In this document: positions 2,549 to 24,621 of the stretch, in pieces
Layout: the number at the start of each line of letters is the position of its first letter
Position numbering within the stretch: position 1 is the first letter of the stretch
Notes under the pieces: generated by a model
Seen by the model: only the letters and a program-made list of their open reading frames with translations
Told to the model about the DNA's origin: nothing
Database searches by the model: none
NCBI GenBank assembly: GCA_963733035.1
Contig: CAVTBU010000006.1
Location: forward strand, 237,665-301,664
DNA: 64,000 bases
Direction of reading: 5' to 3'
Source: Pirellulales bacterium
GTDB lineage: Bacteria; Planctomycetota; Planctomycetia; Pirellulales; PALSA-1355
Made by a program: the position numbers and the translations under genes

Positions 2549-3406
2549 CTAGTTTGGCCGCTGCATGCGCGCAGCCATTTGCACATCAAGGTCCACATGG
2601 TCTAAGGCTAAGGCCATAAGCGCATCTCGCCCGGAGGTACGAAGATACGGCAACGCCACGGCTGCACTTTGTGCATAGCTGACGTGCTCGCTGTCGGTCA
2701 ACCACTTCTCAAGTTGTTCAATCCCTTTTGGTGTATCAAATGGATGTGCACTGCAAACTCCGTCGCGACACGCGCTATTAGAACAATCGAGGAGGGCCAC
2801 GGCGAGAAAGCCTGTCGGCCGTAAGTTGCTCAATTTAACGAGCAGGCGTTTGCGTTCCGGATGATCGTTTTCATACCGTGCGAGTATGACGCTCCATAGG
2901 CTTGAATCTGGCGCAAAAGCCTTTCGTGCCGCTCGTATCACCGCATCGGTACCCTCGCGCGTACAATACATCGCCAACACGTCCAGGGCGAACAATACGT
3001 CGTCGGCCGGGTGGTGGGCCGGTGTACGCAAGCCTTCGTCGACCACTTTCAGTAGAAGGTCGCCCCCCTGCTTCGCAAGGATTGCGAAGGCGGGACACTC
3101 GGCGCTCTCAACCAAATCAAACAAGTGAATTAGTGAACTCAGTGCAGACCGGTTCACATCCATTGGAGGCAGATCCAAAATCCACTCCAGGACATGGCAA
3201 ATAGCTTCCGCGTCAATACGCGACTTGATAGGTTGCTCGCCCAGCTTCCACAGTTCGTCACTGACGCTTGCACCATGCTCCATTCCGCGTCTCAGTGCTA
3301 AAATCAGAGGCGTGTGTGTTGAGAAGTCGTCGAATCTCATCATCGGTCGGTCACCAAATCCAAATCTTCTGCCCAACTTAATGCTAGCCGAATATGTCGG
3401 GTCCAT
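2549..3406 (-). CDS. Hypothetical protein
   Basis: 285-aa ORF. Confidence 0.4.
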   Translation of the reverse strand: MDPTYSASIKLGRRFGFGDRPMMRFDDFSTHTPLILALRRGMEHGASVSDELWKLGEQPIKSRIDAEAICHVLEWILDLPPMDVNRSALSSLIHLFDLVESAECPAFAILAKQGGDLLLKVVDEGLRTPAHHPADDVLFALDVLAMYCTREGTDAVIRAARKAFAPDSSLWSVILARYENDHPERKRLLVKLSNLRPTGFLAVALLDCSNSACRDGVCSAHPFDTPKGIEQLEKWLTDSEHVSYAQSAAVALPYLRTSGRDALMALALDHVDLDVQMAARMQRPN

Positions 3407-3472
3407 CAGCAGTCAGAGAGCTCAACGCATATCTCGACCTGGCTCGAACCGGCAAGATTTTCAGATTTCCCC

Positions 3473-3502
3473 ATGAACCCACGAAACCCTTCCGGCGTCT
3501 AA
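3473..3502 (+). other. Conserved 9-codon uORF (MNPRNPSGV) at the 5' end of the candidate RNA
   Basis: Copy 2 at 24179..24208 encodes MNQRNPSGV. The Ser codon differs by two nucleotides (tcc vs agc) yet stays Ser. Confidence 0.3.
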
Positions 3503-3712
3503 GGTGTCGACAGGGTCGAGGCCGTGTTGGCGTCCGACTGCAGTTGTGACAAGCTTTTACGGGTTGTTCCTTCCATGATGTTCTTACGGCCAAGACTGTT
3601 CCAAGAACACGTAGCCGGGAGTTATTGCGCAGCACAAACGATTGCTGCAAGGTAATTCCCCCGCGCTACCGCTACGCTTGTGACGCTTGGCCTTTAGGTC
3701 TGCTGGCTGCCA

Positions 3713-3747
3713 AAGCCCGATGTCACAAGGACATCGGGCTTTTTTGT
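3713..3747 (+). terminator. Rho-independent terminator (10-bp stem, 6-nt loop, T6)
   Basis: gcccgatgtc acaagg acatcgggc tttttt. Confidence 0.7.
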
Positions 3748-3791
3748 TAGCCTCATGTCGCGCGACAGCGGGAACCAAACAACAAACGAAT

Positions 3792-3863
3792 GGGTCGGTA
3801 GCTGAGACGGTTTAGCGGTGGCCTGAAAAGCCGCAGACGAGGATTCGAGCGCCTCCCGACCCA
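3792..3863 (+). tRNA. tRNA-Phe(GAA)-like
   Basis: Acceptor gggtcgg/ccgaccc. Anticodon loop CTGAAAA. T-loop TTCGAGC. Confidence 0.5.
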
Positions 3864-3899
3864 CTGCGCTCTGCGTGCGCGCTGACGGAGAACACTCAC

Positions 3900-3972
3900 G
3901 GCTCGTTCGTCTATCGGTTCAGGATACTGCCCTTTCAAGGCGGAGAGGTGGGTTCGATTCCCACACGAGCTA
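3900..3972 (+). tRNA. tRNA-Glu(TTC)
   Basis: TCGTCTA..GGA D-arm typical of Glu. Anticodon loop CTTTCAA. Acceptor ggctcgt/acgagct. Confidence 0.6.
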
Positions 3973-4305: not shown

Positions 4306-4333
4306 TTCGGCCAGCGATCGCGGCGGCGCGTAG

Positions 4334-4406
4334 CTCAGTGGTGAGAGCAGGTCTCTTATAAGGACCAGGTCGAGGGTTCGATTCCCTCCGCGCCCACTGT
4401 GCGCGC
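4334..4406 (+). tRNA. tRNA with anticodon TAT (Ile-UAU type, unusual), C1-C72 mismatch
   Basis: D-arm gctc-agtggtgaga-gagc. Anticodon stem ggtct/ggacc. Loop CTTATAA. Confidence 0.45.
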
Positions 4407-4630: not shown

Positions 4631-4697
4631 GCGCCCATGATGTAGCGGTAGCCTGCTGCCTTGCCATGGCGTGCGGGTTCAACTCCCGCTGGGCGCT
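4631..4697 (+). tRNA. Atypical short tRNA-like (Gly-GCC-like loop TTGCCAT), no variable region
   Basis: Acceptor gcgccca/tgggcgc is perfect. Only 67 nt. Possible pseudogene. Confidence 0.35.
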
Positions 4698-6106: not shown

Positions 6107-6177
6107 GCTAATGGTCGGCCGCCTGGCTTTGAACCAGGCTATGGTAGTTCGAATCTACCTCCCCGAGCTTGGAAGAC
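6107..6177 (+). tRNA. tRNA-Gln(TTG)
   Basis: Acceptor tcgggga/tccccga. Stem cctgg/ccagg. Loop CTTTGAA. Confidence 0.55.
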
Positions 6178-8689: not shown

Positions 8690-10500
8690 GGAAGGTAGAT
8701 GCTATGGCAGCGGCGAGGGACTGCGTTAGGCTCCGAGTCACGAGGGATTGTTTTATCCGTTGTTTTGAGGAGCTCAATCATGGCCACTCGACCGCAAGAC
8801 TGCAGCACAACGAAGCCAGTACTGTTCCTGGGTCTCGAATTAGGGCAGCGAACCTGGAAGTTGGGGTTCACCGTGGGTTTGGGTCAGAAGCCGCGGCGAC
8901 GTGAGATCGCTGCCGGTTGCATTCAGGCACTGAAACGAGAGATCAATGAGAGTAAGCAACGTTTTGGTCTGCCTGCGGATGTGGAGGTGATTAGCTGTTA
9001 CGAGGCAGGCCGTGATGGGTTTTGGCTGCATCGTTGGCTGGTGTCTGAGAACGTCACAAACTTGGTGGTTGACTCGTCTAGCATTCAAGTGCCGCGGCGG
9101 CAGCGACGGGCCAAGACCGATCGTCTGGATTTGGAACAATTGTTGACCATGTTGGTGCGCTGGCATCAGGGCGAGTCGAAAGTCTGGAGCGTGGTGACGG
9201 TGCCGAGTGAAGCGGAAGAGGACGTTCGGCATTTGCATCGCGAGTTGGAAACGCTGCGGGCGGAACAGACCAGCCACATCAATCGAATCAAGGGGCTGTT
9301 GATCGGTTGCGGCGTGGTGATTGATGTGAACCGCTGGCTACCGAAACGGCTCAAAGCAATACGGCTTTGGAATGGCTCGCCGTTGACCAGCGATTTGCGG
9401 CAACGGGTATTGCGGGAGTTCGAGCGGATGCAGGTGGTCAATCGACAGGTTCGCGAGCTGGAAAAGGAGCGTGCCGCCCGGATTCGCAGCAACGAAACTG
9501 ACAAGAGCGTCGCCCAGGTGCGGACGTTGTTGGGCGTGAAGGGCATCGGCGTCAACAGCGCGTGGATGTACGTGCAGGAGGTGTTTGGCTGGCGAAAGAT
9601 CAAGAATCGTCGTCAATTGGGTGCGCTCGTGGGGCTGACCGGCAGTCCGTATAGCAGCGGCAACTTGGAGCGCGATCAGGGAATTACAAAGGCTGGAAAC
9701 CGCCGGATGCGAACAATGGCTGTCGAAATCGCCTGGGGATGGTTGGCATTCCAACCCGGCAGCGATCTGAGCCGTTGGTATCACGATCGATTCGCGGCCG
9801 GAAACAAGCGTCTTCGTCGCATTGGAATTGTGGCGCTGGCAAGAAAGCTGTTGGTGGAGTTGTGGAAATACCTGGAGACCGGCGTGCCGCCTTGCAACGC
9901 GGAGCTGACCGAGTGGGAGGACAAGATTCACTACACCCCTTCCCTTACGCCGGCGTAGCGATTGGATCGGTGCGAGTATGGAGCGTCTGAACGACTGACG
10001 TCGAGACTGGAAAGCGACCGAGTATCCGGCGGGTACGAGTTAGGCTCACCGAAAGGTAGATGGGATCGCTTTCATTATGGCTTCCCGAGAGCGTCCAGGA
10101 CGCATAGGGCATAGGGTGATCGGCGATGATGCCGGCACGGATAGAAGCTAGTCGTTGGCCTCGGCCACAACGATCAGCGGAAGCCGCCAGTCATGACGTT
10201 GAACCGACAGAAGAAGTGTTTTGAGGAATGGCAGGACAAATGAATGTGCATCCCAGCACGGCTCCAGCCGCGGCGTGCGGCCAGAGCCGTCACGGAATCA
10301 TTCACCCGCCCTGACCTGGCTATCCCTTGTTGGGTTGCTCTTCAGCAGAGCTCAACTCCGTTTCACCAGGCAGGCGAAAGTATATCACGACTCAACGTTG
10401 GATGAGGAGCTTGACAGGTGCGCATCCATAGAAGCCGGATACGGTTGGCCGGGCCGCTCTGCTAAGGCGGTTCCCGCTCGTCGGGATGAGGGTTCGAATC
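8690..10500 (+). mobile_element. IS110-family insertion sequence, copy 1. The 1811-bp repeat unit is identical apart from 1 nt to 25952-27762.
   Basis: Repeat boundaries defined by alignment of the two copies. The transposase is followed by a ~540-bp non-coding 3' region. No terminal inverted repeats, as expected for IS110/IS1111. Confidence 0.75.
8780..9958 (+). CDS. IS110-family transposase (DEDD N-terminus plus a C-terminal transposase_20-like region)
   Basis: N-terminal VLFLGLELGQRTWKLGF and C-terminal LLGVKGIGVNSAWMYVQEVFGW..ALARKLLVELWKYL motifs. Start moved to MATRPQD. Confidence 0.8.
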   Translation: MATRPQDCSTTKPVLFLGLELGQRTWKLGFTVGLGQKPRRREIAAGCIQALKREINESKQRFGLPADVEVISCYEAGRDGFWLHRWLVSENVTNLVVDSSSIQVPRRQRRAKTDRLDLEQLLTMLVRWHQGESKVWSVVTVPSEAEEDVRHLHRELETLRAEQTSHINRIKGLLIGCGVVIDVNRWLPKRLKAIRLWNGSPLTSDLRQRVLREFERMQVVNRQVRELEKERAARIRSNETDKSVAQVRTLLGVKGIGVNSAWMYVQEVFGWRKIKNRRQLGALVGLTGSPYSSGNLERDQGITKAGNRRMRTMAVEIAWGWLAFQPGSDLSRWYHDRFAAGNKRLRRIGIVALARKLLVELWKYLETGVPPCNAELTEWEDKIHYTPSLTPA

Positions 10501-10932: not shown

Positions 10933-12260
10933 CTAGGGCTCGAGTCGCACCTTGCCGGGCACGGATAGTTCCTTGAGCAGGGCTTCAAAAGCTGACTTCG
11001 CCTCGGGCGAGTTGGTGATGATTTCGATTGATTTAAAAGGCGTTTCGCCACTCTTGATAATTGTGCGAACTCTCGTCAAATCGTCACGCACTTTGTCCAG
11101 AATCACGGCCCGGATGTCCTCTCGGATAGATGAGCCGGGCACATAAGGACTCTTGCCGGCCTTCGCTACGTGCTTCGCTTCAAGAATTATCGTATCCCGG
11201 TATCCATCGATTGCAAAAGACTGGCCGCCGCCTGATATCGTGTAGTTGTAGGGGCCGGTCTGCTTGATTTCATATTGACTCGCTGCCGATTTCGTGGGTG
11301 TAGGCTTGCGAGGAAGCTTCGCGACGAAGTCATCAAGAGTGCCTCCCACTTTTCCAGGAACTTTGCGAAGCGCCCTGCCGAGCACAGCCTTCCCGAGTCG
11401 CAGGATTGCCGGTGCGGCCACGACGGCGGATGCAATTTCAAACTCAATGCCGGTTGACTGCAAACCACTCGGTGTGCCGCCCCTGGCTACGGCATGCCCG
11501 ACTTCCTCGATACCCTTGCCACCGACGATCGTCTCTGCCGGGGTGAACGCCGAATGCTGTTTCGCTGGGCGTGATAGCTCTTAATGCGTTTCGGCAATTC
11601 CTTGATTTGGCGACGGGTGTGATCCAATGCATTCTTTGTCTGCCACCAAGCGTGTGCCAGGTCCAGCATGTGTGAGTCGGAACCGTCGGACTCGTCGCTT
11701 CCGCCGCTACCGGGCCCCTTGCTGCGGGGTGAGCGACTCTTGCCGGTGTTGATTCCGCCCCCACCGCCCCCCTTATTGATCCACTGCCCGCCGATCGGCG
11801 TTCCCTTGGGCGCCCGGGGATGATCGGCCTCGTTCCATTCGACAACAAGTGAGTCTGATTCAGTGAATCGCTCGATCGCATGCCACGTCCTGCTGTCCCG
11901 TGCCTCGATCTGTTGAATCGCACGCAGTTTGTCTTCCGCCTCGGCCGAGATCTGAGCTGCCCATTCCAGAAGCTCACGATCGCGACGAGCGTTGGCTTCG
12001 GCGGATTGCAGCTCGCGCAGCTCCTTTGCCTGTCGATACGAGAATCGTGCTAGCCGCCCCAACTCCTCGCGTTGAGCTTTCGCCTGTGCCTCGGGAGGCA
12101 TCATTCGTGGAATCGGCCTACCGAGAATCGCTTGTGCAAATAGCCAACCTTCGCTGGGCTGCGAAACTCCGGCGACATCCCGTGTCTTTTTGTAACGGTC
12201 CATGACGCTCCTCTTCATGGGTGCGAGAAAAAGAGCCCGCACCCGGTGCGCGCTTCGCAA
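10933..12260 (-). pseudogene. Paralog B of the 352..1749 gene, disrupted by at least two frameshifts. Its C-terminal domain is PD-(D/E)xK nuclease-like.
   Basis: Three consecutive reading frames (11487..12260, 11444..11977, 10933..11463) each match successive parts of paralog A (RDRELLEW / DHPR motif / HHWVPIGV ~ MHWITPV). The first frame switch is at the C/G homopolymer tract near 11755-11775. The C-terminus has AIDGYRD..ILEAKH. Confidence 0.6.
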
Positions 12261-12793: not shown

Positions 12794-13444
12794 ATGATCA
12801 TGTTGCGAGCGATCCTAACAGCGTTGAGACGATTCCTGTTTGGCCAGCCTGTGGCCAGCAGGGTGACCGCGAAGAAACCGTCGGCAGAAGCCGTCGCGTG
12901 TGCGGTCGTTCATTCGACGACGTCGGCGGATCGCAACGAAGGGAGGCCTACCATGAACGCAGCCTATGACAAACTATGCGAACACCTGACCAACCAGAAC
13001 GTCGGCTTTTGGTCGCGCAGCGAGGACTTGTCGATCTGCACCGACTTTCGGGGCGAGGTCGGTACGTACCGGATCTTCGCTCGGATTGATGCTGATGACA
13101 GCTTGTTCCAGGTCTTCGGTCATTCGCCGGTTCGCGTTCCGCCAGGCTCGCGGCCGGCGATCGCCGAGGCCGTGGCGCGGATCAACTGCGGTCTGAAGGT
13201 CGGCAAGTTCGAGATGGATTGTGACGAGGGCGAGCTGCGGTTCCAGGCGGCCCAGATCCTGCCCGACGACGATCTCGACGAGCAGACGATTCGGCGACTG
13301 ATTGGTACGACCATGTCGATGTTGAACATTTACCTTCCGGCCATCTTGTCGGTCATCTACGGCAACGAACTGCCGAAGGATGCCGTCAGACACGCAGAGC
13401 CCGGGCGGTATGTGTCCGACGAAAACGAGCGCGGTGAGGCCTGA
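12794..13444 (+). CDS. YbjN-like protein (T3SS-chaperone-like fold), copy 1
   Basis: 216 aa, ~93% identical to 29313..29957. Two-lobed pattern GTYRIFARIDADDSLFQVFGHSP / ELRFQAAQILPDD fits the YbjN family. Confidence 0.45.
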   Translation: MIMLRAILTALRRFLFGQPVASRVTAKKPSAEAVACAVVHSTTSADRNEGRPTMNAAYDKLCEHLTNQNVGFWSRSEDLSICTDFRGEVGTYRIFARIDADDSLFQVFGHSPVRVPPGSRPAIAEAVARINCGLKVGKFEMDCDEGELRFQAAQILPDDDLDEQTIRRLIGTTMSMLNIYLPAILSVIYGNELPKDAVRHAEPGRYVSDENERGEA

Positions 13445-13457
13445 TCACCGCGCATTT

Positions 13458-13530
13458 GTCCTCGGAGTGTGCCGGATTCGCACGCGACCCTGCGAAGGTC
13501 GAGGACCAGGTTCAACTCCTGGCGAGGACA
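13458..13530 (+). tRNA. tRNA with anticodon GCG (Arg-GCG, unusual isoacceptor), copy 1
   Basis: Acceptor gtcctcg/cgaggac is perfect. Stem cgacc/ggtcg. Loop CTGCGAA. T-stem ccagg/cctgg. Confidence 0.5.
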
Positions 13531-13577
13531 TTTTGGAATGTCGCGGGATTGTGTACCGTAGTAGCGGGAGACACTCA

Positions 13578-14042
13578 ATGAACTTGCAGCATGAAAATCA
13601 CGGTCCCTTGCCGACGCGCGAGGACATTAATGTCTTCGACTCGCTTGACGAACGTTGCGCTTGCGATCACTTTTTGGGCAAGAACATGGACGAGGCTCAG
13701 GCACTGTTCAGTGATAATTTCTTGCGTTACCAGGAGGATTTGGTGTTTATGGGGCCTCGTGCCTTCCGCTTCTACGTTCATGCTGCCATGCAATACCTCA
13801 TGAGCCCCGATGCCTCAGGTGACGGCGATGCCGCCAACAGTTTCGCAGGGCTACTTGAATTCAGACTTGAACATGAGAGGAACGAAGTGCAGCCAGTGGC
13901 AGGTGAGCTAGCGCGGATATGCAATTACCTCTTCGAAAATATTAGTCGATTCGAATGTGAGCCATCCATCTATGGCGATGTTGGCGCTCGTTATGCAGCT
14001 CTGAATAGCGCGCTCGAACAACTCGCCACGACACAGCCCTAA
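13578..14042 (+). CDS. Hypothetical protein
   Basis: Approximately 154-aa ORF starting MNLQHENH. Confidence 0.4.
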   Translation: MNLQHENHGPLPTREDINVFDSLDERCACDHFLGKNMDEAQALFSDNFLRYQEDLVFMGPRAFRFYVHAAMQYLMSPDASGDGDAANSFAGLLEFRLEHERNEVQPVAGELARICNYLFENISRFECEPSIYGDVGARYAALNSALEQLATTQP

Positions 14043-14302: not shown

Positions 14303-14376
14303 CAGATGGTTAGCTCAGTGGGTAGAGCACCAGACTTTGCATCTGGCTGTCACGGGTTCGACTCCCGTACCAAACG
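14303..14376 (+). pseudogene. tRNA-Ala(TGC)-like pseudogene (acceptor arms do not pair)
   Basis: Good D-arm, anticodon arm (loop CTTTGCA) and T-arm, but the 5' segment cagatgg cannot pair with the 3' segment accaaac. Confidence 0.4.
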
Positions 14377-14775: not shown

Positions 14776-15690
14776 ATGAATATCTACATCATCAAGACCA
14801 TCAAGATCCGCAGCTACGAAATGGGTCTGTACTTCCGCGACGGCGAGTTCCGTGGCTTGCTGCGCGAAGGTCGCCACTGGTTCGTAGATCCGCTGGGGAA
14901 GGCCAAGATCGAGGTCGTATCGCAGCGGCAGCCGTGGCTGGCGCACGAGAAGCTCGACGTGATCTCGCGCTCGGGTGCGCTCGAGGACCGCGCGGTGGTG
15001 CTGGACCTGAAGGACTACGAACGGGCTTTGGTCTGGATCGATGGTCACTTCAGCCACATCCTGCCGCCGGGCCTGTACGCCTACTGGACGGCTCTGCGTG
15101 ACGTGAAGGTCGAGGTGGTCGATGCCCGCAAGGCGCGGTTCGAGCACCCGGATCTGAAGGTCATCCTGCAGTCGCCGCTGGTGGACCGTGTGCTGTCGCT
15201 GGCGACGGTGCAGGCGCACCACATGGGCGTGTTGTTCATCGACGGCGACTTCGTCGAGACGTTGCCGCCGGGCCGCTACGCCTTCTGGAAGAACCTGGCT
15301 CAGGTCAAGTTCGTCGAGGAGGATATGCGCGAGGCGATGTTCGACGTGGCCGGCCAGGACATCATGACGGCCGATAAGGTGACGCTGCGAATGACCGAGC
15401 TGATGGAGAAGTTCCCGGTCCACGTGGTGTGCGGCTGGACCGGCAACAGCGAGGCGATCGCGCTGAAGCACTACCTCCAGGTCACCGACGACCATTTCGA
15501 GCGGGCCGTGCGGGGCGAGGCCGAGATCGGGCCGGAAGTCACGCCGACTGTTACCAACACTCTCGCCAACACAACGGCGCAAAAGCGGCGCAGCATGCGC
15601 ACGCAGGGGGTAGCGGCGAGCAGCAGGCGGCTCAGGGCACCAACGCAAAAGCCCCGGGATTGCCGGGGCCTGCGACTTCCCGCGATATAG
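14776..15690 (+). pseudogene. Chimeric ORF: the N-terminal ~205 aa of the SPFH-associated protein family (compare 31445..32557) fused in frame at about 15394 to the last ~70 codons of a tyrosine integrase
   Basis: Protein matches the 31397 ORF up to ADKVTLRM, then matches the integrase C-terminus TELMEKFP.HVVCGW.GNSEAIALKHYLQVTDDHF. Confidence 0.6.
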
Positions 15691-15726
15691 CGAACACTTG
15701 TTCACGCGGGGAGTCGAACCCCCAGC
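15394..15726 (+). repeat. Direct repeat of the integrase 3' end plus att region (partner 40091-40425), ending in a partial tRNA-Glu T-arm core ggggagtcgaacccc
   Basis: Alignment of the two segments, about 93% identical. Confidence 0.7.
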
Positions 15727-15985: not shown

Positions 15986-16696
15986 CTACTCTGAACCAAG
16001 CCGATACCCGATGCCTGGCTCGGTCAGTAGATACTGGGGGCGGGAGGGGTCGGACTCGATCTTGCGGCGCAGGTGGGCCATGTAGACGCGGAGGTAGTGC
16101 GTCTCGAACACGCTGTCGGGGCCCCAGACTTCCTTGAGGAGCTGCCGGTGGGTGACGAGCTTGCCGCCGTGGCGGATGAGGGTCGTCAGCAGCCGATGCT
16201 CGATGGGAGTGAGGTGCACCTCCTTTTCGCCGACGAAGACCTGGTGTCGGCCGAAGTCGACGCGCAGCTCGCCAAGGGTGAACACGGGGGCGTCTGCTTC
16301 GGAAACTTCTGGCAACCGCCGCAGCGCCACTCGGACGCGGGCCAGTAGTTCGCCGACGCCGAACGGCTTCGTCAAGTAATCATCCGCGCCACTGTCGAGT
16401 GCCTTGATCTTGTCGGCCTCGTTTCCGCGCGCGGACAGGACGATGATCGGGACATTCGACCACTGGCGCAGCTTGCGAATCACCGACAGCCCATCGATGT
16501 CCGGCAAGCCCAGGTCCAGCAGCAGCAAGGCGGGCTTCTCGTCCTTCGCTTTCTGCAGCCCATCCTCGCCTGTCGGCGATTCCAGCACACGATATCCACT
16601 GCCGAGCAACGTGGCTCGCAGGAATCTGCGAATCTCTGCCTCATCCTCGATGATGAGGATTCTTGGGAATTGAGCCGGGACTGGTTCCTTAACCAT
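15986..16696 (-). CDS. kdpE: KdpE response regulator (OmpR family)
   Basis: REC plus winged-helix domains. Position downstream of kdpD. Confidence 0.85.
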   Translation of the reverse strand: MVKEPVPAQFPRILIIEDEAEIRRFLRATLLGSGYRVLESPTGEDGLQKAKDEKPALLLLDLGLPDIDGLSVIRKLRQWSNVPIIVLSARGNEADKIKALDSGADDYLTKPFGVGELLARVRVALRRLPEVSEADAPVFTLGELRVDFGRHQVFVGEKEVHLTPIEHRLLTTLIRHGGKLVTHRQLLKEVWGPDSVFETHYLRVYMAHLRRKIESDPSRPQYLLTEPGIGYRLGSE

Positions 16697-16755
16697 TTTG
16701 CATCAGGACGTAAGGCTGCCTGGGCCGGCGGATTGCTGCGGCGTTGTTGCGTTCA

Positions 16756-19463
16756 CTATCTCAACGTCCCGCGGCGGTGGGCCATCGGACACGAACTCCA
16801 GGCGAAACGCGGCACCACCCCCTTCGCGATTTCGGGCGCTGCGCGCCCGCCATGAGCATCCATGATGGCACGGCAGATTGCCAGTCCCAGCCCCGCCCCG
16901 CGCGAATCGGACTTGGCGTCCTCGCCACGCTGGAACCGCTCGAAGATCCGCTCCTCGTCCCCTGGCTTCAATCCAGGGCCGTGATCGGCGATCTCCAAAA
17001 TCGTCTTACGTCCGTCTTGCCAGGCACGGATCTCAATGGCCGTTCCGGCCGGCGTGTACCGGCAAGCATTGTCCAACAAGTTCACGATGGCCTGCTCGAC
17101 CAGGACGGCGTCTACGTGCGCGAGCAAAACTTCGGGCGGCAGATTGACGTTTACGGGCCGATTCGCGAGCGTCCGATCGAGCCGCCGCAGGGCCGAGGCG
17201 ACGATCTCTTCGACCGGCTGCCATTCCTTGCTGATTGCCGGCTTTTCGGAGGACGAAAGCTGCGTCATTCGCAGGATGTTCTCCACCAGCCGCGACAGGC
17301 GATCGGATTCTTCGAAGACGGTCTCCAGCAGTTCGCGTCGCGTCGGTTCGTCCATCGATGTACCACCGTGCAGGAGGCTGCTGGAAGCCCCGACGATCAC
17401 GGCCAGCGGAGTGCGCAAGTCATGCGAAATGGAGGAAAGCAGCGTGCTGCGAATCCTCTCCGTCTCCGCCTGTAGATGCGCCTGGTCCGACTCAAGCGTG
17501 AGCCGATCGCGCTCGATCGCCAAGGCAACCTGCGTCGAGTAGTTTTCCAGGATTTGCCGGTACTCGGGCAGGAGAAGTTTAGCGGCGTCGCTGTGGCGAA
17601 CCGCCAAGACACCCATCGTTCCGCTGGGAGATTGGAGCGGAAGGTAGAGCGCCCGGGCGGAGGGCAAAGTATCGGTGCCGTGGCCAGCCGGCTGGCCGTG
17701 GTCAAATACCCACTGCGCGACGGCAATCTCGGACGGATCGGCGGCGAATCGAGCGCGGTGGTCCAGGATCGGCTGTAACTTGCCGGCACGCGACAGGAAT
17801 ACGGCCGTGTCGCCGCCGAGGAACTCCGAGACGGCACGTTCCGTTTCTGCCGCGATGAAATCTTCGCCCACGATGCCGGTAAGCTTGCGGCCCAAGCGAT
17901 AGAGGGCCTCGATGCGTCGTTCGTTTCGCCGGGCGGACTCGGCCTGGCGTCGGACCCGCGCCGTTAGAGCCGCAATACTAAGCCCTGCAACGAGCATCAC
18001 CGCAAACGTGATCAGATACTGTGTGTCGTTGACAACCACGGTGTAATACGGCTGGGTAAAGATCACATCGAACAGCGCGACCGACACGACCGACGCCACG
18101 ATCGAGGGGCCTCGCCCATACCGGAACGCGACGAACATCACGCCCAGGAGGTAGGTCATCACCAGATTGGCTTCGGTCAGGCCTGCGCGATGCCAAAGTA
18201 ACGAGACGGCAGTGCACGCTGCCAGAACGATTGCCGTTCCGATCCAAGCACGCCACCGAAAACCAATCGTAGACGGAGTGGACGGCGGCGCATGCGGCAC
18301 CAGCTCGGCGGTTCCGTGGATCACGTACACGTCAATGTCGCCGCTCTCGCGAATCAACCGGTCCGCAGGCGACTGCCGTGGCCGGAACCATCCGCGCGTC
18401 AACTCGGACTTGCCGACGACGATCTTGGTCACGTTGCGCTCTTGAGCGTACCCGATCGTCTCGGCGACAAGGTCCTCGCCGCTTACGGTGGCGGTTTCCG
18501 CTCCCAGGCGCTCGGCGAGTCGAAGATGCGCGAGCAGCCGCGCGCGATCCTTCGCGGACATCTCGCCCGATTGCGACGATTCAACGTTGATGGCAATCCA
18601 CTCGGCTCCCAGGGACTCGGCCAAGCGCTTGGCCGCGCGCACCAGCCTGGCTGACGTGGGGCTGGGACCGACGCAAACCAGCAGTCGTTCGCGGGTGGCC
18701 CACACTTCGTGCCGGGCGCGAGCGAGCCGGGCGGTCTGCACGTCGGCGTGCACGCGTTCCGCCGTGCGGCGGAGAGCCAGTTCTCGCAGGGCGACGAGAT
18801 TCTCCTTGCGGAAGAAGTTCTCAAGCGCCCTTGCAGCTTGCGCCGGGATGTAGACTTTTCCCTGCTCAAGACGCTCGAGCAGGTCCTCCGGCGGCAGGTC
18901 GATCAGCGTCAGCTCGTCGGCCCGATTGAAAACATCATCGGGCACGGTTTCGCGCACGATGACGCCGCTGATCTGGGCAACGACATCGTTGAGCGATTCG
19001 ACATGCTGCACATTGCAGGTCGTGTTGACGTTAATTCCGGCGTCCAACAGCTCTTCGACATCCTGCCATCGCTTCACGTGTCGCAGTGATGGCGCATTCG
19101 TGTGTGCCAGCTCGTCGACGAGAATCAGTTCCGGTTTTCGTGCCAAAGCCGCATCCAGGTCAAATTCTCTCAGCGTCGTTCCGCGATAGGGAGCCTCCAG
19201 GGCGCAAGCCGCTCCAGACCTTCGAGCAGCTTCTCGGTTTCGGGCCGCCCGTGCGGTTCGACGTAGCCCACGACGACGTCCGCGCCCGCGGCTTGCTCGC
19301 TGCGAGCATCAAGCAACATGGAATACGTCTTGCCGACACCCGCGGAGTAGCCGAAGAATACTTTCAAGCGACCGCGCTTTGCCTGGTCGGATGACTCCGT
19401 GTCTCCCTCCGTCTTGAGACGAGCCAGCATCTGCTCGGGTGTGGGGCGATCACTGTCGGTCAT
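16756..19463 (-). CDS. kdpD: KdpD sensor histidine kinase, apparently frameshifted (97-aa N-terminal piece 19170..19463 plus 796-aa piece 16756..19146)
   Basis: KdpD N-terminal motif GYSAGVGKTYSML, then USP, GAF, HisKA and HATPase domains. The frame switch lies near 19190-19215 (LAPW.. versus ..PYRGTTLREFDLDAALARKPEL). Confidence 0.8.
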
Positions 19464-20047
19464 GGCGCGGCATTCGCTGGCGGCTTAGCAAGTTGGTCAA
19501 GGGCCACGTTAAGCTCGAGAATATTGACGATCGGCTCTCCTCCCAGAGCGACGATCGTCGGAGAGTCAATGTGCTGGCGAACCAGCTCTTCTACCTGCTC
19601 CGGCCGAAGGTTTCGCGCATCAGCCACCCGTGGCACCTGAAACATCGCAGCGGCCAGCGAAATGTGGGGGTCCATTCCCGAGCCGGATGTCGAGACGAGG
19701 TCGGCCGGAACGAGTTGCCCCGCATCGGGCTTTAGCTCGCCGATGATCTGCCGCGCTTTTTCCGTGAGCAAGGGATTCCTGGGCGACAAGTTGCTGCCTC
19801 CGGTGGCACTGGCATTGTAGTCGCATGCCGAGGGCCGCGGCCAGAAGTAGTCGTGTCGTGAGAAACCCTGCGCGAGCAGCCGCGAGCCGATGATCGTTCC
19901 GTCGGAACTCCTTACGAGGCTTCCCTGTCGCGACTGCGGCGCGGCGAGCACGGCGAAGCCCAGAATGACGGCCGGGTAAGCCACCGAGCAGACCAGAAGG
20001 CTCAATAAGAACAGTCGCAATGACGTGATGATGTCTCTCATGTTCAA
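19460..20047 (-). CDS. kdpC: K+-transporting ATPase subunit C
   Basis: Single N-terminal TM, KdpC-like sequence, operon position. Confidence 0.8.
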   Translation of the reverse strand: MNMRDIITSLRLFLLSLLVCSVAYPAVILGFAVLAAPQSRQGSLVRSSDGTIIGSRLLAQGFSRHDYFWPRPSACDYNASATGGSNLSPRNPLLTEKARQIIGELKPDAGQLVPADLVSTSGSGMDPHISLAAAMFQVPRVADARNLRPEQVEELVRQHIDSPTIVALGGEPIVNILELNVALDQLAKPPANAAP

Positions 20048-20072
20048 TTCTTTCTCACCCCGGGGCCAAAGG

Positions 20073-22181
20073 CTATGCCAATCCGAGGCCCGACAGGACC
20101 AAGTCGATCAACTTGATTCCCACAAACGGCACCACCAATCCGCCCAAGCCGTAGATGAGCAGGTTCCTCCGCAACAAAGCGTCGGCTCCCACGGCCCGGT
20201 AGCGCACGCCCCGGATCGCGATGGGAATGAGGCACGGGATCACGACGGCATTGAAGATCACGGCCGAAAGGATGGCACTCTGAGGCGTGGCGAGCCGCAT
20301 GATGTTCAGCACTTCCAACTGAGGCAGTGCGACCATGAAGATCGCCGGGATGATCGCGAAGTACTTGGCGACGTCGTTGGCCACGCTGAACGTGGTCAAC
20401 GCGCCGCGCGTCATAAGCATCTGCTTCCCCACCGATACGACGTCAATGAGCTTGGTCGGATTCGAATCGAGGTCGACCATGTTGCCGGCTTCCTTGGCGG
20501 CCTGTGTCCCGGTGTTCATCGCCACGGCCACGTCGGCCTGAGCCAGGGCAGGGGCATCGTTGGTGCCGTCGCCGGTCATGGCCACGAGATGCCCGTCTTT
20601 TTGATACTCCCGGATGAGTTCCAGCTTGGCCTCGGGCGTGGCTTCCGCGAGAAAATCATCAACGCCTGCCTCTGCGGCGATCGCAGCGGCCGTCTTGGGG
20701 TTGTCGCCGGTAATCATTACCGTCTTGATGCCCATGCGGCGCAACTCGATGAAGCGTTCTTTGATCCCGCCCTTGACGATGTCTTTCAGGTAAACGGTTC
20801 CCAGTACACGGCTATTCTCGGCAACCACAAGCGGCGTCCCGCCGGCGCGGGCAATCACGTCCACATCGTGTGCGACTTGCTCAGGAAAATCGCCGGCCTG
20901 TTCGTCTATAAATCGCCGGATCACGTCGGCCGCGCCCTTGCGGATGCGCCGACTGTCGAGGTTGATCCCACTCATTCGCGTGCGGGCCGTGAAGTTGACA
21001 AACTCGGCCTGCTTTGCTTCCAGCTCCCGGCCGCGGATGTTGAACCGCTCTTTGGCCAGGACGACGATGCTGCGCCCCTCGGGCGTTTCGTCAGCTAGTG
21101 AGGCCAGTTGGGCCGCATCTGCCAGTTGCCTCTCTTCGATTCCAGACGCGGGCCGGAATTCGGTGGCTTGGCGGTTCCCTAGCGTGATCGTGCCCGTTTT
21201 GTCCAACAGGAGCACATCCACGTCACCGGCAGCCTCGACGGCGCGGCCGGACATGGCCATTACATTCGCCTGGCTCAGACGCGCCATGCCGGCAATGCCA
21301 ATCGCGGCCAACAGCGCGCCGATCGTAGTAGGTATCAGGCAAACCAGCAGGGCGACCAGCGTTGGCACGTCGATGGTCACATCGAAGTATTGCGCAATGG
21401 GATAAAGCGTCGTGCAGACCATCAGGAATATCAAGGTGAAGCCGGCCAGCACGATGGTCAGCGCGATCTCGTTGGGGGTTTTTTGACGCTCCGCTCCCTC
21501 GACCATCGCAATCATGCGATCCAAGAAGCTTTCGCCGGGTCGGGCCGTGACGCGAATCACTAGATGGTCCGATAGCACGCGTGTTCCGCCCGTGACGGCT
21601 GAGCGGTCGCCACCGCTTTCGCGAATCACCGGAGCACTTTCGCCGGTGATCGCCGATTCATCGACCGAAGCGACGCCCTCGATGACTTCGCCATCGGCGG
21701 GAATCGTCTCGCCGGCTTCCACACGCACAAGGTCGCCGTTTTTCAACTCGGAGGCCGGCACGTCTTCGACAGTGGATTGGCTTTGATCGACGAACCGATG
21801 AGCGGTGACGTCTTGCCGCGCCTTGCGCAGGCTGGACGCCTGGGCGCGCCCCGCGCCTCGGCCACGGCCTCGGCGAAGTTCGCGAACCAGTCCGTCAGCC
21901 ACAGCCACACCGAGATGGCGAGGAAATAGCCGGTGCCTTCGCTTCTGGAGACGGCCGCCGAGAGCGTTGCCAATGTGGTCAACATGGCTCCAAGCTCCGT
22001 GACGAACATCACCGGGTTGCGGGCCATTGACCATGGGTTCAGCATTTTGATGGCCTGGCCGACCGATGGCAGCAGCATCCTGGCGGTGAAAAGCGACTTC
22101 TCCTTGCGAAAGGACGAGCCCCCGGAAGAGCCGCCGGCCGACATTGCTTCGACTTGCATGGAGTTTGGCCCTTCGAATCAA
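20073..22181 (-). CDS. kdpB: K+-transporting P-type ATPase subunit B
   Basis: DKTGTIT, TGDN and GDGxND motifs. Confidence 0.9.
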
Positions 22182-23848
22182 CGCGGATTGAGGTGTTCGG
22201 CGATCGGACCCAGCATCGCCAAGGGCAGGAACAACAAGGCTCCGACAATGAGGATCGTTCCCAGCAGGACGACGCCGAACAGCAGCGTGTCAGTGCGGAA
22301 AGTGCCGGCGGTCTCGGGAGCAGCCCGCTTGGCAGCCAATGAGCCAACGATGGCCAGCGGCGCGATGATGGGGATGAACCGACCCAATAACATGACGACT
22401 CCCGTGGCGATGTTCCACGGCACCGTGTTATCTCCCAGACCCTCAAAGCCAGACCCGTTGTTGGCGGCCGCGGAGCTGAACTCGTAGACGATTTCGCTCA
22501 AGCCGTGGCTGCCAGGATTGTGCAGCGTGTCCAGACCCCACGACGTGTCTGCGAACAGCGCGGTCCCGCCCAGGATGAACAGCGGATGAGCCAATAGCGC
22601 GATCAGCGCCAGCTTCATCTCCTTGGTTTCCACCTTGCGAGTGAGATACTCCGGTGTGCGGCCGACCATCATGCCGGCCAGGAATACCGCAGTAATCACG
22701 AACAGGAACATATTGATAAGCCCCACCCCGACGCCCCCGAACACGACGTTCAGCCACATCCCGGCCATCGGCACGATGCTCGTCAGCGGGTTCAGGCTGT
22801 CATGCATCGCGTTCACGCTGCCGTTGCTGGTCGAAGTGGTCGACACGGCCCATGTCGCACCGGCAGTTGTGCCGAAGCGCAGCTCCTTGCCTTCGAGGTT
22901 CATCGAATGCGCGACCGGCAAATCCTCTAAGGCGGCTGTCGGCTGGCTTTCAAGCCAACAAGCAGAGACGACGAAGCTCAGGTAAAGCGCCAGCATCACG
23001 CCGAAGAGCACCGCCGCGTGCCTGACGCGAGCGGTGATGCGGCCGAACATCCAGACGGTCGCCATCGGCACAAGCAGGATGGCAATGTTGGAAAGCACGT
23101 TCGACCAGAACGTCGGATTCTCGAAAGGATGCGTGCAATTCGGCCCGAACCAGCCTCCGCCGTTCGTGCCCAATTGCTTGATCGCGATGAAGGCCGCCAC
23201 CGGGCCACGGGCGATCGTCTGCGTCGCGCCTTCGAGCGTTGTGGCGACCGCCGCACCTTCCAGCGTCATGGGCACCCCGCAAACGACCAGCAGACCGGCC
23301 CAGACGATCGACAGCGGTAGCAGGATCAGGGCCGCCGCTCGCCAGACGTCTTGATAGAAGTTGCCCAGGCGCGAGAACCCTGCGAGCCCTCGGGCGAGCG
23401 CCGTGACGACCCCGATGCCCGTCGCCGCACTGACGAACTGCAGCCACATCAATGCCCCAAGCTGAGAGAAGTAGCTGAGCGATACTTCACCTGAATAGTG
23501 CTGTAAGTTTGTGTTGCTGGTAAAGCTGGCCGCGGTATTGAAGGCCAGGCTTGGTTCGATCGGGCCCTTGTCATCGGGATTGAGCGGCAACCACGGCTGA
23601 GTCGTCAATACGAGATACGCGAACACGAACATCAGCAGATTGAAGGCCAACATCGAGACGCAGTACTGTTTCCAACTCTGCGGCCGGCATATCTCATATC
23701 CAAGCAGCGCCACGCACGCTTTGTCGTAGCGGACGCGAATTGGTCCGGCGTCGCTCGGATCCATCGCCCACTGCATGTATCGCGCCAGCGGCCAAGAGAG
23801 GACGAGCGCTACCACGACGACGATTGTTGGAATAGTCAAACCGAGCAT
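22178..23848 (-). CDS. kdpA: K+-transporting ATPase subunit A
   Basis: 556-aa polytopic membrane protein, [14 protein letters not shown]-terminus typical of KdpA. Confidence 0.85.
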
Positions 23849-23957: not shown

Positions 23958-24166
23958 GGCATTCTCCTCACAGCCGCTCGCAGGCCCAAGTGAAACCAAG
24001 CATCGCCGTGAATTCGGCTATTCCAATGAGGAGCATCAAGATCCACATTCTATCGCCACTCAGGAACCGGCCAGCAAGTCGTCGACGGATGGATTCTAGT
24101 GGGGGCCGCGCTAAAACGGCGTCAAAAAGCCGGCCGCCCAGAATCCCCCAGACGGCGCGAGAATTC

Positions 24167-24480
24167 TTAGATTTCCCCATGAACCAACGAAACCCGAGCG
24201 GCGTCTAAGGTGTATAAGAGGGGTCGGGGCCAAGGGGCTGCTGACCGCTGTTGTGACAAGCTTTTACGGGTTGTTCCTTCCATGATGTTCTTACGGCCAA
24301 GACTGTTCCAAGAACGGATAGCCGGGAGTTATTGGCGCAGCGACAGTGTGCATTGATCGCGAAGCGATGCCGACCGCTGCAAGGTAATTCCTCCCCGCTA
24401 CCACTCCGCTTGTGACGCTTGGCCTTTAGGTCGATCTGGCTGCCAAAGCCCGGTGTCGCAAGGACATCGGGCTTTTTTTG
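24167..24480 (+). ncRNA. Candidate structured RNA, copy 2 (same element as 3461-3747)
   Basis: Same conserved blocks and terminator (gcccggtgtcgcaaggacatcgggc+T7). One variable hairpin is expanded. Confidence 0.45.
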
Positions 24481-24525
24481 TTGGCCTGACGTGGAGGTGG
24501 TGGCGGGGAACCAGGCAACACACAT

Positions 24526-24616: not shown

Positions 24617-24621
24617 CTGCG

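Follow-up and report, generated by a model that had tools for sequence, protein, structure and literature searches.

Background

What is the conserved ~290-nt element that stands at the head of both tRNA arrays in the 64-kb window analysed here (the window being the whole stretch of DNA presented above), and what does it do to the genes that follow it? The two arrays hold 30 and 14 co-oriented tRNA genes. The initial annotation described a terminator-ended RNA before each of them and took the terminator as a sign that this RNA is a transcript in its own right and not a processed leader. We give about an even chance to a different reading, in which the element is the promoter and 5′ leader of a horizontally spreading planctomycete L-array and acts in cis as a transcription attenuator, probably a ribosome-dependent one.

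An L-array is a supernumerary set of tRNA genes, over 20 in number, closely packed in one orientation and spread horizontally, often together with an HNH endonuclease gene (PMC8421152). L-arrays are described as poorly transcribed, and are reported to be silent and inducible by translational stress in Anabaena (PMC8421152). Judged from this one window, the present arrays appear to be of this kind: their tRNAs are co-oriented, their gene order is common to other genomes in which the flanks are unrelated, and an HNH endonuclease gene lies within the window at 27984-28580.

Occurrence and setting of the element

Copy A occupies 3461-3747 on the forward strand, at the head of the first tRNA array, and copy B occupies 24167-24480, at the head of the second. 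The long near-identical blocks reported for this pair are borne out by alignment. Mean column identity is 84% (MAFFT, 3400-3800 against 24100-24540), with an abrupt onset at ~3457/24163 and an invariant 80-nt block at 3540-3620, and blastn gives 79% over 463 nt. According to blastn, a single large segmental duplication takes in both arrays, so the likeness of A and B alone proves little. A further 19 copies, in two diverged clades, were collected from Planctomycetes MAGs and metagenomes; because their upstream flanks are unrelated, the conservation exceeds what chance or recent duplication would leave. Most copies were gathered with probes from the conserved core, and the invariance of that core is therefore partly due to the design of the search. 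Two metagenome hits (L007 and L012) were rejected as homologues, being chance matches to a 21-mer only.

Wherever a copy has enough downstream sequence, it heads a long tRNA array of fixed order (Phe-Glu-Pro-Ile-Lys...), with tRNA-Phe as the next gene after the element. Among the collected copies, the element was never seen away from such a tRNA-Phe-led array. Plasmids and phages gave no blastn match to it, and two scans of viral contigs were likewise without any match. The gene following copy A is tRNA-Phe(GAA) at 3792-3864 (forward strand), the presumed first regulated gene, which would be reached only by read-through of the terminator. Its counterpart after copy B, at 24526-24617 on the same strand, is a homologue of tRNA-Phe with an insertion of ~20 nt in its D-arm; ARAGORN calls the gene Cys, and it scores only 16 bits against the Rfam tRNA model.

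Relation to known RNA families

The initial annotation had failed to match the element to tmRNA, RNase P, 6S or SRP RNA and named an Rfam search as a check. Run over the 64-kb window at gathering thresholds, that search returned tRNA hits only; tmRNA, RNase P RNA, 6S RNA, SRP RNA and every other Rfam family were without a covariance-model match at gathering score. No tmRNA was found by ARAGORN. At E<=10, Rfam gave only sub-threshold matches to terminator-ended sRNAs, the best non-tRNA match being STnc390, which reached 28.7 bits where the gathering score is 50 and covered the terminator alone. The T-box model (RF00230) had no match at E<=10 in either copy, and the antiterminator described below is without the 7-nt bulge. 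The description of a conserved, structured, terminator-ended RNA absent from Rfam is supported. The alternative named beside it, that the element is the 3′ UTR of the upstream gene, was dropped because the gene upstream of copy A (2549-3406) is divergent and lies on the opposite strand.

Promoter-like motif

An ECF-sigma-type promoter-like motif spans 3475-3502 of copy A (forward strand), with a -35 element GAACC at 3475-3479, a 17-nt spacer and a -10 element CGTCTAA at 3496-3502. Copy B carries GAACC-N17-CGTCTAA at 24181-24208, also on the forward strand. The motif is present in all 19 of the 19 copies that reach this region, with two one-base variants and fixed spacing. Five clade-2 copies have unrelated spacers and retain both the motif and its exact spacing. 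ECF promoters are marked by AAC at -35 and CGT at -10 (PMC3426412), and the sigE targets of S. coelicolor include sequences such as GGGAAC-N17-CGTCTA (PMC6767563). The element's motif fits this published pattern, in which AAC and CGT stand 16-17 nt apart (PMC3426412, PMC6767563). It probably belongs to the ECF promoter class, and the RNA of copy A is predicted to start at ~3508-3510, that is, 6-8 nt past the motif.

No sigma-70-like promoter was detected in the copy A region (3300-3900), and a regulon search for a second GAAC-N17-CGTCTAA site found none elsewhere in the 64-kb window. Nor was any cognate ECF sigma or anti-sigma gene with the same motif found near the element or in the window, which counts against an attenuator leader driven in this way. 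The first RNAalifold model contained a long-range helix, P1 (GGCGTCTAAGGTG:CGCTTGTGACGCT). It was rejected because its 5′ strand is the -10 element, and because copy L006 breaks the pairing while GCGTCTAA is conserved at a fixed distance from GAACC.

Terminator and candidate antiterminator

Each copy closes with a strong intrinsic terminator, as had been annotated, consisting of a 13-bp stem and a run of T6-7 (forward strand, 3712-3745 in copy A and 24445-24479 in copy B). In copy A, segment S3 comprises the 5′ arm and loop (3712-3729), S4 is the 3′ arm (3730-3742), and the T-run lies at 3740-3745; the stem has 7 G-C pairs and a 5-nt loop, and the hairpin is valued at -21.8 kcal/mol. The corresponding parts of copy B are S3 at 24445-24462, S4 at 24463-24475 and the T-run at 24473-24479 (-22.2 kcal/mol). 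A terminator of ~ -21 kcal/mol with U6-7 is common to all copies and forms in every full-length MFE fold, and all of its pairs are retained in 15/15 clade-1 sequences.

The terminator had been placed directly before the first tRNA. It does lie upstream of 3792 and 24526, at a distance of about 44-46 nt. Between the terminator and tRNA-Phe there are 13-90 nt in all complete copies, and in clade 2 the gap from the U-tract to tRNA-Phe is 13-15 nt (L006, L020, L021) or ~30 nt (L022). Because the clade-2 gap is so short (13-30 nt) and no sigma-70-like promoter was detected in 3300-3900, the array must be transcribed through the terminator.

Upstream of S3 lies segment S2 (CTTGTGACGCTTGGCC), at 3677-3692 in copy A and, with the same sequence, at 24409-24424 in copy B (both forward strand). 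It could pair either with S3 or with a segment further upstream, S1. S2 is invariant across clade 1; its clade-2 variants (CUUGUGACCCGG, GAAUGACACUCGGC and others) differ yet remain complementary to S3. Across clades, no blocks are more invariant than S2 and S3, which fits segments that are each under two pairing constraints. Against a null of random 20-mers of the window (-9 +/- 3 kcal/mol), the S2:S3 duplex is significant in clade 1, at -17.4 (copy A) to -23.9 kcal/mol (p 0.0000-0.003), with copy B at -22.2 kcal/mol (p = 0.003), and in four clade-2 copies, at -16.6 to -19.4 kcal/mol (p 0.007-0.044). When nascent-RNA folds were cut before S4 and S1 was blocked, S2 paired with S3 in 14/16 clade-1 and 4/4 clade-2 sequences; the antiterminator of copy B forms in this fold once S1 is blocked. 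In both clades, the S2:S3 antiterminator overlaps the terminator 5′ arm and loop, an arrangement that belongs to leader-peptide attenuators. On this modelling, the complementarity of S2 to the terminator 5′ arm is the design of a conditional terminator, and the modelled terminator/antiterminator pair is the best-supported feature of the element. A further partner for S2, the 5′-UTR block ACAAGC seen in the MFE fold of copy A, was discarded, as the pairing is lost in homologues (GACACGC).

These results bear on an independent, trans-acting sRNA gene of ~240-265 nt that would have its own promoter and terminator and travel with the array, the tRNAs being transcribed separately or by leaky read-through. 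The promoter-like motif, the strong terminator and the extensive structure outside any Rfam family would all suit such a gene, and trans action is known for terminated attenuator RNAs such as rnTrpL (PMC6614838), so that a dual role is possible. We nonetheless judge it quite improbable. There is neither room nor signal for a separate array promoter, either in the short clade-2 gaps or in the window copy; the complementarity of S2 to the terminator arm, which is independent of clade, would be purposeless in a simple sRNA gene; and no collected copy lies apart from a tRNA-Phe-led array. The step from terminator to discrete RNA gene taken in the initial annotation is thus unsupported, as clade-2 spacing, S2:S3 complementarity and the ATG frame described below point the other way. 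We have demoted the free-standing RNA in favour of a leader rather than dropped it, because a terminated leader would still accumulate and attenuator RNAs can act in trans.

Divergence between the clades speaks to whether anything is switched at all. The element might instead consist of a promoter, a leader of arbitrary sequence and a terminator that serves as an insulator, whether unconditional or leaky, on the border of a mobile array of recent spread; its conservation would then reflect recent ancestry. Clade-1 arrays are indeed closely related, with inter-tRNA spacers also ~90% identical, the window copies share a segmental duplication, and poor transcription is a described property of L-arrays (PMC8421152). 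In clade 2, however, the 5′ UTR cannot be aligned with that of clade 1, identity falls to ~50% in part of the short frame and S2 is different, and despite this divergence the promoter spacing, ATG, frame length, stop inside S2, S2:S3 complementarity and terminator are all retained. Motifs, frame, terminator and significant S2:S3 complementarity are conserved in two diverged clades, and we regard an element with no switch as very unlikely.

Leader hairpins and the S1 segment

The 5′-proximal hairpin P2 (3514-3539, forward strand) is present in the MFE fold of copy A, and a hairpin of differing sequence occupies this site in every homologue, for instance AUGCAGCAGGC..GCCUGCAU in L006. S1 (GGCCAAGACTGTTCCAAG), at 3588-3605 on the forward strand of copy A and 24295-24312 in copy B, covers codons 5-10 of the short frame and is the candidate for an anti-antiterminator pairing with S2. 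RNAalifold, run on 15 clade-1 sequences, predicts an S1:S2 helix of 15 pairs in which every cell (100%) is paired, with 4 one-sided changes and no broken cell. The five variable S1 columns are all compatible with it, transitions preserving the pair and transversions sitting at unpaired columns, and the helix is present in the full-length MFE of 11/16 copies. Two results count against the pairing and thereby against an attenuator that uses it: the S1:S2 duplex energy is no better than chance (p about 0.15-0.6), and the clade-2 consensus has no common S1:S2 helix. A local hairpin, P4 (GTTCTT/AAGAAC), may be an alternative to S1:S2; it is compatible with the data, with one column broken in 5 sequences.

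Between S1 and S2 of copy A stands the long hairpin P5 (3611-3669, forward strand), with a variable tip. This is the hairpin for which differing sequence with preserved pairing had been reported (GCAGC..GCTGC against a longer GCGCAGCG..CGCTGC); it exists, and in other genomes pairs of its tip have changed in a compensatory way (A-U to G-C). The tip carries a 24-nt insertion in other copies and one of ~25 nt in copy B, and the clade-2 counterpart of P5 has compensatory changes at three pairs. The helix base has several one-sided disruptions, so the upper part alone appears well supported. Across the element, true compensatory covariation is sparse, as only a small number of sequences, all close relatives, could be compared. 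This sparseness, too, counts against the attenuator model.

The short reading frame

Within the leader, a short frame runs from an ATG that is invariant in 21/21 copies amid bases that vary. In copy A it lies at 3575-3655 (ATGATGTTCTTACGG..., forward strand; 26 codons and TAA) and has a 2-nt deletion in a GCGCGC tract, and in copy B it lies at 24282-24356 (forward strand; 24 codons and TGA), with a 1-nt deletion at the same tract. The frame of the family is 33-44 codons long and usually stops at a TGA inside S2 (3681-3683 in copy A coordinates), as it does in 16/19 complete copies. In clade 2 it always has 33 codons and no indels, despite ~50% divergence in codons 6-17, unlike the 5′ UTR and the S2-S3 spacer, which are rich in indels. 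The 24-nt tip insertion also preserves the frame. A Shine-Dalgarno-like purine core 12-15 nt upstream of the ATG is clear in clade 2, where all copies have it at -12/-13; clade-1 copies have a weak version or none. TTA stands as codon 4 in 20/21 copies, and the remaining one has the synonymous CTA. Clade-1 codons 4, 7 and 13 (TTA, AGA and ATA) are among the four rarest sense codons in the window genes (7,379 codons), and the array encodes the matching tRNAs, Leu-UAA, Arg-UCU and Ile-UAU. From these sequence features, the frame may be translated.

Other properties of the frame count against a ribosome-dependent attenuator. There is no run of one regulatory codon, the rare TTA, AGA and ATA being only scattered. 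Frameshifts at the GCGCGC tract occur in three of the 19 complete copies (A, B and L001); their frames stop 56 or 88 nt (window copies) or 16 nt (L001) before the terminator, where 25-50 nt is usual. Of the indel events inferred for the region of the frame, about half are frame-breaking. The absence of stop codons does not discriminate, since in every clade-2 copy a second frame is open as well.

Could the peptide be the functional product, made as a small protein of 33-44 aa (MxFLR...PLRL) from a gene with its own promoter and terminator? The ATG is conserved, the peptide ends M-x-[FYC]-L-R and P-L-R-L-stop are conserved in both clades, and one database gene call (P0001) covers the frame. There is no codon-position signal, however, variable columns numbering 13/11/13 by position in clade 1 and 16/11/14 in clade 2, and no selection at the amino-acid level (dN/dS about 0.3-1.8). 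With no third-position excess and dN/dS near 1, a functional peptide is unlikely. Radical replacements (R to G, L to P) and the three frameshifted copies are also at odds with it, and conservation of the C-terminal codons is accounted for by RNA pairing, since they fall within S2. We give a small-protein gene hardly any credence.

The lack of amino-acid selection and the three broken frames, both window copies included, agree with a leader whose frame is incidental, that is, an attenuator or riboswitch-like switch set by an RNA-binding protein, a small ligand or a tRNA acting on the S1-P5-S2 hairpin. A terminator/antiterminator design needs no ribosome per se, and the compensatory changes in P5 preserve RNA pairing while altering the encoded amino acids. 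Yet no T-box or riboswitch family matches even at E<=10, the hairpin is rod-like rather than a multi-helix junction with conserved loops, and no candidate binding-protein gene is conserved beside the element in the homologue neighbourhoods. Such a switch would also leave unexplained the invariant ATG amid variable neighbours, the constant 33 codons of clade 2, the stop in S2 and the Shine-Dalgarno-like core. We consider it unlikely.

Discussion

We infer from this arrangement that the element regulates the array, and the direction of the switch and the signal sensed are proposed on the same footing. In the ribosome-dependent attenuator that we favour, transcription would start just past the ECF-type promoter and yield a leader RNA of about 240-265 nt, comprising the 5′ hairpin, the short frame with S1 and the long hairpin, S2 with its TGA, and the S3:S4 terminator. 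Pairing of S2 with S3 would preclude the terminator; alternatively, S2 would pair with S1. Under prompt translation, the ribosome would cover S2 while at the weak UGA-C stop, or the S1:S2 helix would re-form in its wake; with S2 thus engaged, the terminator would form and the array would stay silent. A ribosome that lags or stalls early (in clade 1 at codons 4, 7 or 13) would mask S1 and leave S2 free to pair with S3 as it emerges, so that polymerase would continue into tRNA-Phe and the remaining genes of the array. The logic would resemble that of the trp attenuator. The inducer would be translational stress or a shortage of the rare-codon tRNAs that the array itself encodes, and the terminated leader would build up as a separate RNA species, about 235-265 nt long.

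A more specific version is doubtful but possible. In it, the element would be a self-regulating "hungry-codon" sensor, whose rare-codon frame stalls ribosomes when the array-encoded Leu-UAA, Arg-UCU and Ile-UAU tRNAs are scarce, so that the antiterminator is freed and the mobile array of 30-plus genes is turned on, with an ECF sigma factor adding a stress input.

Among known systems, the closest in construction are the leader-peptide attenuators (trpL, hisL, leuL, thrL and pheL, and pheM of pheST). They share a 5′ leader frame, an intrinsic terminator, an exclusive antiterminator over the terminator 5′ arm and possibly an S1:S2 pairing with the element, which would likewise be built as a sensor of translation speed. 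The element differs in controlling tRNA genes rather than biosynthetic or synthetase genes, in having scattered, very rare codons instead of a single-codon run, in a longer frame (33-44 codons) that passes through a long hairpin to a stop in segment 2, in an ECF-type rather than a housekeeping promoter, and in its planctomycete host; there is no sequence or Rfam similarity. Antibiotic-responsive leader-peptide attenuators of the erm/cat and yxjB type combine a short frame with a terminator/antiterminator and turn their genes on upon ribosome stalling, a behaviour that would fit induction by translational stress. The genes after the element are tRNAs, however, not resistance genes, and it has no demonstrated arrest motif. 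In B. subtilis, the yxjB leader is induced by tylosin (PMC6851288).

The trn operon of Anabaena sp. PCC 7120 is the same kind of object, a long, horizontally transferred tRNA array with an HNH endonuclease, which is silent by default and switched on by impaired translation. There, the repressor TrcR binds direct repeats over the -10 element and start site of a sigma-70 promoter (PMC8421152, PMC10272220). No leader terminator or frame is described for Anabaena, whereas our element has an ECF-type motif and a terminator leader, and direct 9-nt repeats of the TrcR type over the -10/start site are absent from its control region. T-box riboswitches resemble the element in length and in being terminator/antiterminator leaders with a relation to tRNA; their targets are genes for synthetases, transport or biosynthesis, whereas the element precedes tRNAs and lacks the T-box sequence, the bulged antiterminator and the specifier-loop architecture. 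The likeness to rnTrpL of Sinorhizobium meliloti lies in a prematurely terminated leader that exists as a discrete, structured, terminator-ended RNA, with a possible second role in trans (PMC6614838); for the element, no target or trans function can be inferred.

The element is compact and makes sharp predictions (start codon, rare codons, S2:S3 pairing), which puts it within reach of simple reporter assays. Long tRNA arrays are found across many phyla, spread horizontally and are mostly silent, and how they are switched on is known for one case, Anabaena, where translational stress relieves a promoter-bound repressor. A conditional-terminator leader, if true, would be a second and mechanistically different way to control them, and one that depended on the ribosome would tie expression of a spare tRNA set directly to translation performance or to rare-codon tRNA supply. 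Classical attenuation, so far a matter of amino-acid, synthetase, pyrimidine and resistance genes, would then extend to tRNA genes and to the Planctomycetes, a phylum in which hardly any RNA regulation has been characterised. Should the hungry-codon version hold, this would be the first transcription attenuator shown for tRNA genes.

Genomic context of the element

The window is a segment of a planctomycete chromosome in which ARAGORN predicted 45 tRNA genes, 44 of them co-oriented and in two arrays. A complete kdpFABC-kdpDE potassium-uptake operon at 16-23.8 kb (15986-23848, minus strand) lies between the arrays, so that the second array begins right beside divergent small kdpF-like ORFs. As the initial annotation described, the conserved element of ~290 nt stands directly 5' of both arrays (copy A, 3461-3747; copy B, 24167-24480), with 84% column identity between 3400-3800 and 24100-24540 and 79% over 463 nt by blastn. 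The alignment of the two copies contains long invariant blocks, and similarity begins sharply at ~3457/24163. Each copy does end, 46 nt from the first tRNA, in a terminator with a G+C-rich stem of 13 bp and a T6-7 run (3712-3745 and 24445-24479), and the hairpin with a variable tip (P5; 3611-3669 in copy A) is real. The two arrays constitute one segmental duplication, seen by blastn as collinear blocks at 3457-3869/24163-24622, 7152-8297/24648-25642 and 8690-10500/25952-27762 (99.9% identity), among others. The likeness of copies A and B therefore cannot count as independent evidence.

Both arrays agree with the description of L-arrays by Santamaria-Gomez et al. (PMC8421152), namely long, horizontally spread, HNH endonuclease-associated tRNA gene arrays reported in Planctomycetes. 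An HNH endonuclease gene (27984-28580) is found right after tRNA-His, and the other protein genes among the tRNAs encode HEPN/AbiV-like proteins (30084-30743 and 13380-14042), YbjN-like proteins (12794-13444 and 29313-29957) and a Tox-REase-2 domain protein (10933-11463, minus strand). The arrays bear defense- or toxin-like cargo, in line with the HNH genes reported for L-arrays. Both also carry a 1.8-kb IS110-family transposase element (8690-10500 and 25952-27762) whose 99.9% identity, versus 79-93% around it, points to recent insertion or gene conversion. A 312-nt direct repeat (92%; 15393-15704 and 40090-40400, the latter abutting tRNA-Glu(CTC) at 40401-40474, minus strand) and a 145-nt inverted repeat (86%; 208-351 and 12374-12228) could be boundaries or att-like scars of an array-bearing island.

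The first tRNA of the second array (24526-24617) is a tRNA-Phe(GAA) homologue with a ~20-nt D-arm insertion. It was called a 92-nt tRNA-Cys by ARAGORN, its Rfam tRNA score is down to 16 bits, and it could be a pseudogene or an intron- or insertion-bearing tRNA. Rfam tRNA matches with no ARAGORN call were found at 14307-14372, 30969-31034 and 4631-4697 (51, 51 and 35 bits, respectively); the first two match model positions 4-67 only, which would fit tRNA-like elements or tRNAs whose acceptor stems are aberrant.

Known RNAs and homologues

The element is not a T-box and is not in Rfam. A search of the window with 4,227 Rfam families at gathering thresholds reported tRNAs alone, and ARAGORN found no tmRNA in the window, in agreement with the earlier failure to match a known RNA. 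At E ≤ 10, both elements gave sub-threshold matches only, covering the terminator, the best being STnc390 (28.7 bits versus a gathering score of 50). The possibility, raised at the outset, of a 3' UTR of the upstream gene does not apply to copy A, where that gene (2549-3406) runs in the opposite direction.

A 25-mer from the conserved core identified at least five loci in at least four Planctomycetes MAGs, and a 21-mer identified at least five true loci in metagenomes, along with two chance matches. Protein searches seeded with the reading frame of the element, and with spurious ORFs that gene callers sometimes place on its opposite strand, added loci L013-L018, and the same approach starting from L006, the most divergent copy, added L019-L022. 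At least 21 distinct copies were collected, all relatives being from Planctomycetia or Planctomycetaceae MAGs or soil metagenomes. They form two clades, clade 1 (n = 16; both window copies, L001-L005, L008, L011 and L013-L018) and clade 2 (n = 5; L006 and L019-L022). Wherever the contig runs on, an array in the order Phe-Glu-Pro-Ile-Lys-Ile(UAU)-Lys..., headed by tRNA-Phe(GAA), comes after the element, and the upstream flanks are unrelated between copies.

Promoter-like motif

Every copy reaching far enough contains GAACC and CGTCTAA separated by exactly 17 nt, with two one-base variants. The clade-2 spacers are unlike each other and unlike those of clade 1; two fixed boxes at fixed spacing around a free spacer are the pattern of a promoter, not of a helix. 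The motif agrees with the ECF-sigma signature of 'AAC' at -35 and 'CGT' at -10 (PMC3426412) and with validated Streptomyces sigE targets, including GGGAAC-N17-CGTCTA (PMC6767563). No sigma-70-like promoter was found within 3300-3900. The closing helix of a first RNAalifold model, which used the promoter region as one strand, was rejected, being broken in L006 where the boxes are kept. Within the related array of L004, a second GAAC-N17-CGTCTAA (6109-6136) precedes tRNA-His and the HNH endonuclease gene by 14 nt and may act as an internal promoter of this class.

In clade 2, the U-tract is 13-15 nt from the tRNA in L006, L020 and L021 and ~30 nt in L022, which leaves no room for a separate array promoter, so that the array would be transcribed only via read-through of the terminator. 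The spacer between terminator and tRNA-Phe (3746-3791) is fairly conserved in clade 1 (..CGATAGCGGGAACCAAxCAAC..), holds another GGAACC and is, tentatively, a candidate processing signal; clade 2 has no such spacer.

The short reading frame

The frame opens with an ATG (3575 in copy A) that is kept in 21/21 copies, although the bases flanking it vary (ATGATG, ATGATC, ATGTCT or ATGACC; C, G or A before). A common TGA within the conserved block CTTGTGAC ends the frame in 16 of 19 complete copies, and a 24-nt hairpin-tip insertion keeps the frame. In clade 2, the frame is exactly 33 codons with no indel, even though codons 6-17 are only ~50% identical and indels abound in the adjoining 5' UTR and the spacer before the terminator. 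A non-regulatory leader that owes its conservation to recent spread is contradicted by this second clade and is very unlikely. Upstream of the ATG, at a distance of 12-13 nt, 5/5 clade-2 copies have an SD-like core (GAGG/AGGA/AAGG); clade 1 offers no more than a weak G-rich spot. The absence of stops is uninformative, since another frame is also open, and translation is argued against by the loss of 1-2 nt from a GCGCGC tract (codons 18-19) in both window copies and L001, which gives an early or late stop.

The three codon positions contribute evenly to the variable columns (13/11/13 and 16/11/14) and dN/dS is ~0.3-1.8, which is evidence against a functional peptide. A small-protein gene, which this neutral-like substitution contradicts, is accordingly extremely improbable. 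If the frame is translated, the act of translation would matter rather than its product.

The rarest sense codons in the window's genes (7,379 codons) are ATA, the rarest of all, TTA/TGT and AGA. In the clade-1 frame, TTA, AGA and ATA occupy codons 4, 7 and 13, and clade 2 again has ATA and TTA; at codon 4, 20 copies have TTA and one has the synonymous CTA. We estimate p ~0.02 for the rare-codon count under a non-coding null. The array encodes tRNA-Leu(UAA), tRNA-Arg(UCU) and an unusual tRNA-Ile(UAU). Bacteria normally decode ATA via a lysidine-modified CAU tRNA, and a UAU anticodon is unusual. The tRNA-Ile(UAU) gene (4324-4397) is conserved in all related arrays, including those of L001, L004, L005 and L014.

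Terminator and alternative pairings

A strong terminator (~-21 kcal/mol) is present in all complete copies, and the 5' hairpin differs in sequence per lineage. S2, a segment of 16-20 nt that includes the TGA (3677-3692), is complementary to S3, the terminator 5' arm and loop (3712-3729). In clade 1, S2:S3 consists of eight Watson-Crick pairs, then G-U, C-G, U-G, one mismatch and three G-C pairs, and its energy of -17.4 to -23.9 kcal/mol matches the terminator's own stability (random 20-mers of the window, -9 ± 3 kcal/mol; p = 0.0000-0.003). The clade-2 S2 variants CUUGUGACCCGG, GAAUGACACUCGGC, CUUGUGACACCCGGCC and CCUGUGACCCGG each pair with their own S3 (-16.6 to -19.4 kcal/mol; p 0.007-0.044). 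No blocks of the element vary less than S2 and S3, which is what a constraint from two alternative pairings would predict. Compensatory changes are few in this small sample of closely related sequences (clade 1, col 119-208 and the tip of P5; clade 2, three pairs in P5).

Full-length leaders folded with ViennaRNA formed the terminator in 16/16 clade-1 and 4/4 clade-2 copies, with S2 paired to S1, a segment in the frame (3588-3605), in 11/16 clade-1 and all clade-2 copies. When a stalled ribosome was mimicked by cutting the RNA just before the terminator 3' arm (S4) and keeping the first ~13-15 codons single-stranded, S2:S3 formed in 14/16 and 4/4. Across 15 aligned clade-1 sequences, all cells of the 15-pair S1:S2 helix are paired, three transitions in S1 keeping the pair and two transversions falling on unpaired columns. 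Its energy is no better than chance and clade 2 has no common S1:S2 helix, so we regard it as possible, not established.

At array heads, both clades share the promoter-like motif, the frame, the terminator and a significant, mutually exclusive S2:S3 pairing. The RNA proposed as discrete in the initial annotation is structured and terminator-ended, as stated there, and uncatalogued; the antiterminator and the lack of a separate array promoter favor a leader. A free-standing small RNA is hard to square with these two features and seems quite unlikely, although the terminated leader may double as a trans-acting RNA, like rnTrpL (PMC6614838). The structural evidence fits an attenuator set by a protein, a ligand or a tRNA instead of a ribosome equally well, but such an attenuator leaves the ATG, frame length and stop position unexplained, and we consider it unlikely.

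Proposed mechanism

In ribosome-set attenuation, an ECF sigma factor would start transcription near 3508 and a ribosome would initiate at the leader ATG. With translation on pace, the ribosome at the TGA would cover S2 during S3/S4 synthesis, the terminator would form and an RNA of ~240 nt would be released. The leader TGA is always followed by C, which gives UGA-C, a stop context that is weak in E. coli. If the ribosome lagged or stalled early, S2 would be free with S1 masked, S2:S3 would form first and RNA polymerase would go on into the array. This mechanism is drawn from sequence comparison of 21 related copies, among which those of the window are atypical. Given their truncated frames, stalling over S1 could still work and masking of S2 at the stop could not; in copy A, a G-to-A change makes the terminator stronger and the antiterminator weaker. 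Possibly, copies A and B are altered or in decay.

In function, the element comes closest to the classical leader-peptide attenuator, with which it shares a terminator and an antiterminator; its frame may likewise be translated. It differs in having no run of regulatory codons and in its presumed target, tRNA genes; literature searches found no precedent for an attenuator regulating tRNA genes. The one studied L-array is silent and is induced by translational stress via a promoter-bound repressor (PMC8421152, PMC10272220), and the proposed read-through would fit that stress induction. A feedback loop, by which the array would detect that its own rare-codon tRNAs are scarce, is an attractive idea but a speculative one. 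The element is real and conserved, a control element not catalogued before, and opens the regulation of cryptic tRNA arrays to direct testing.
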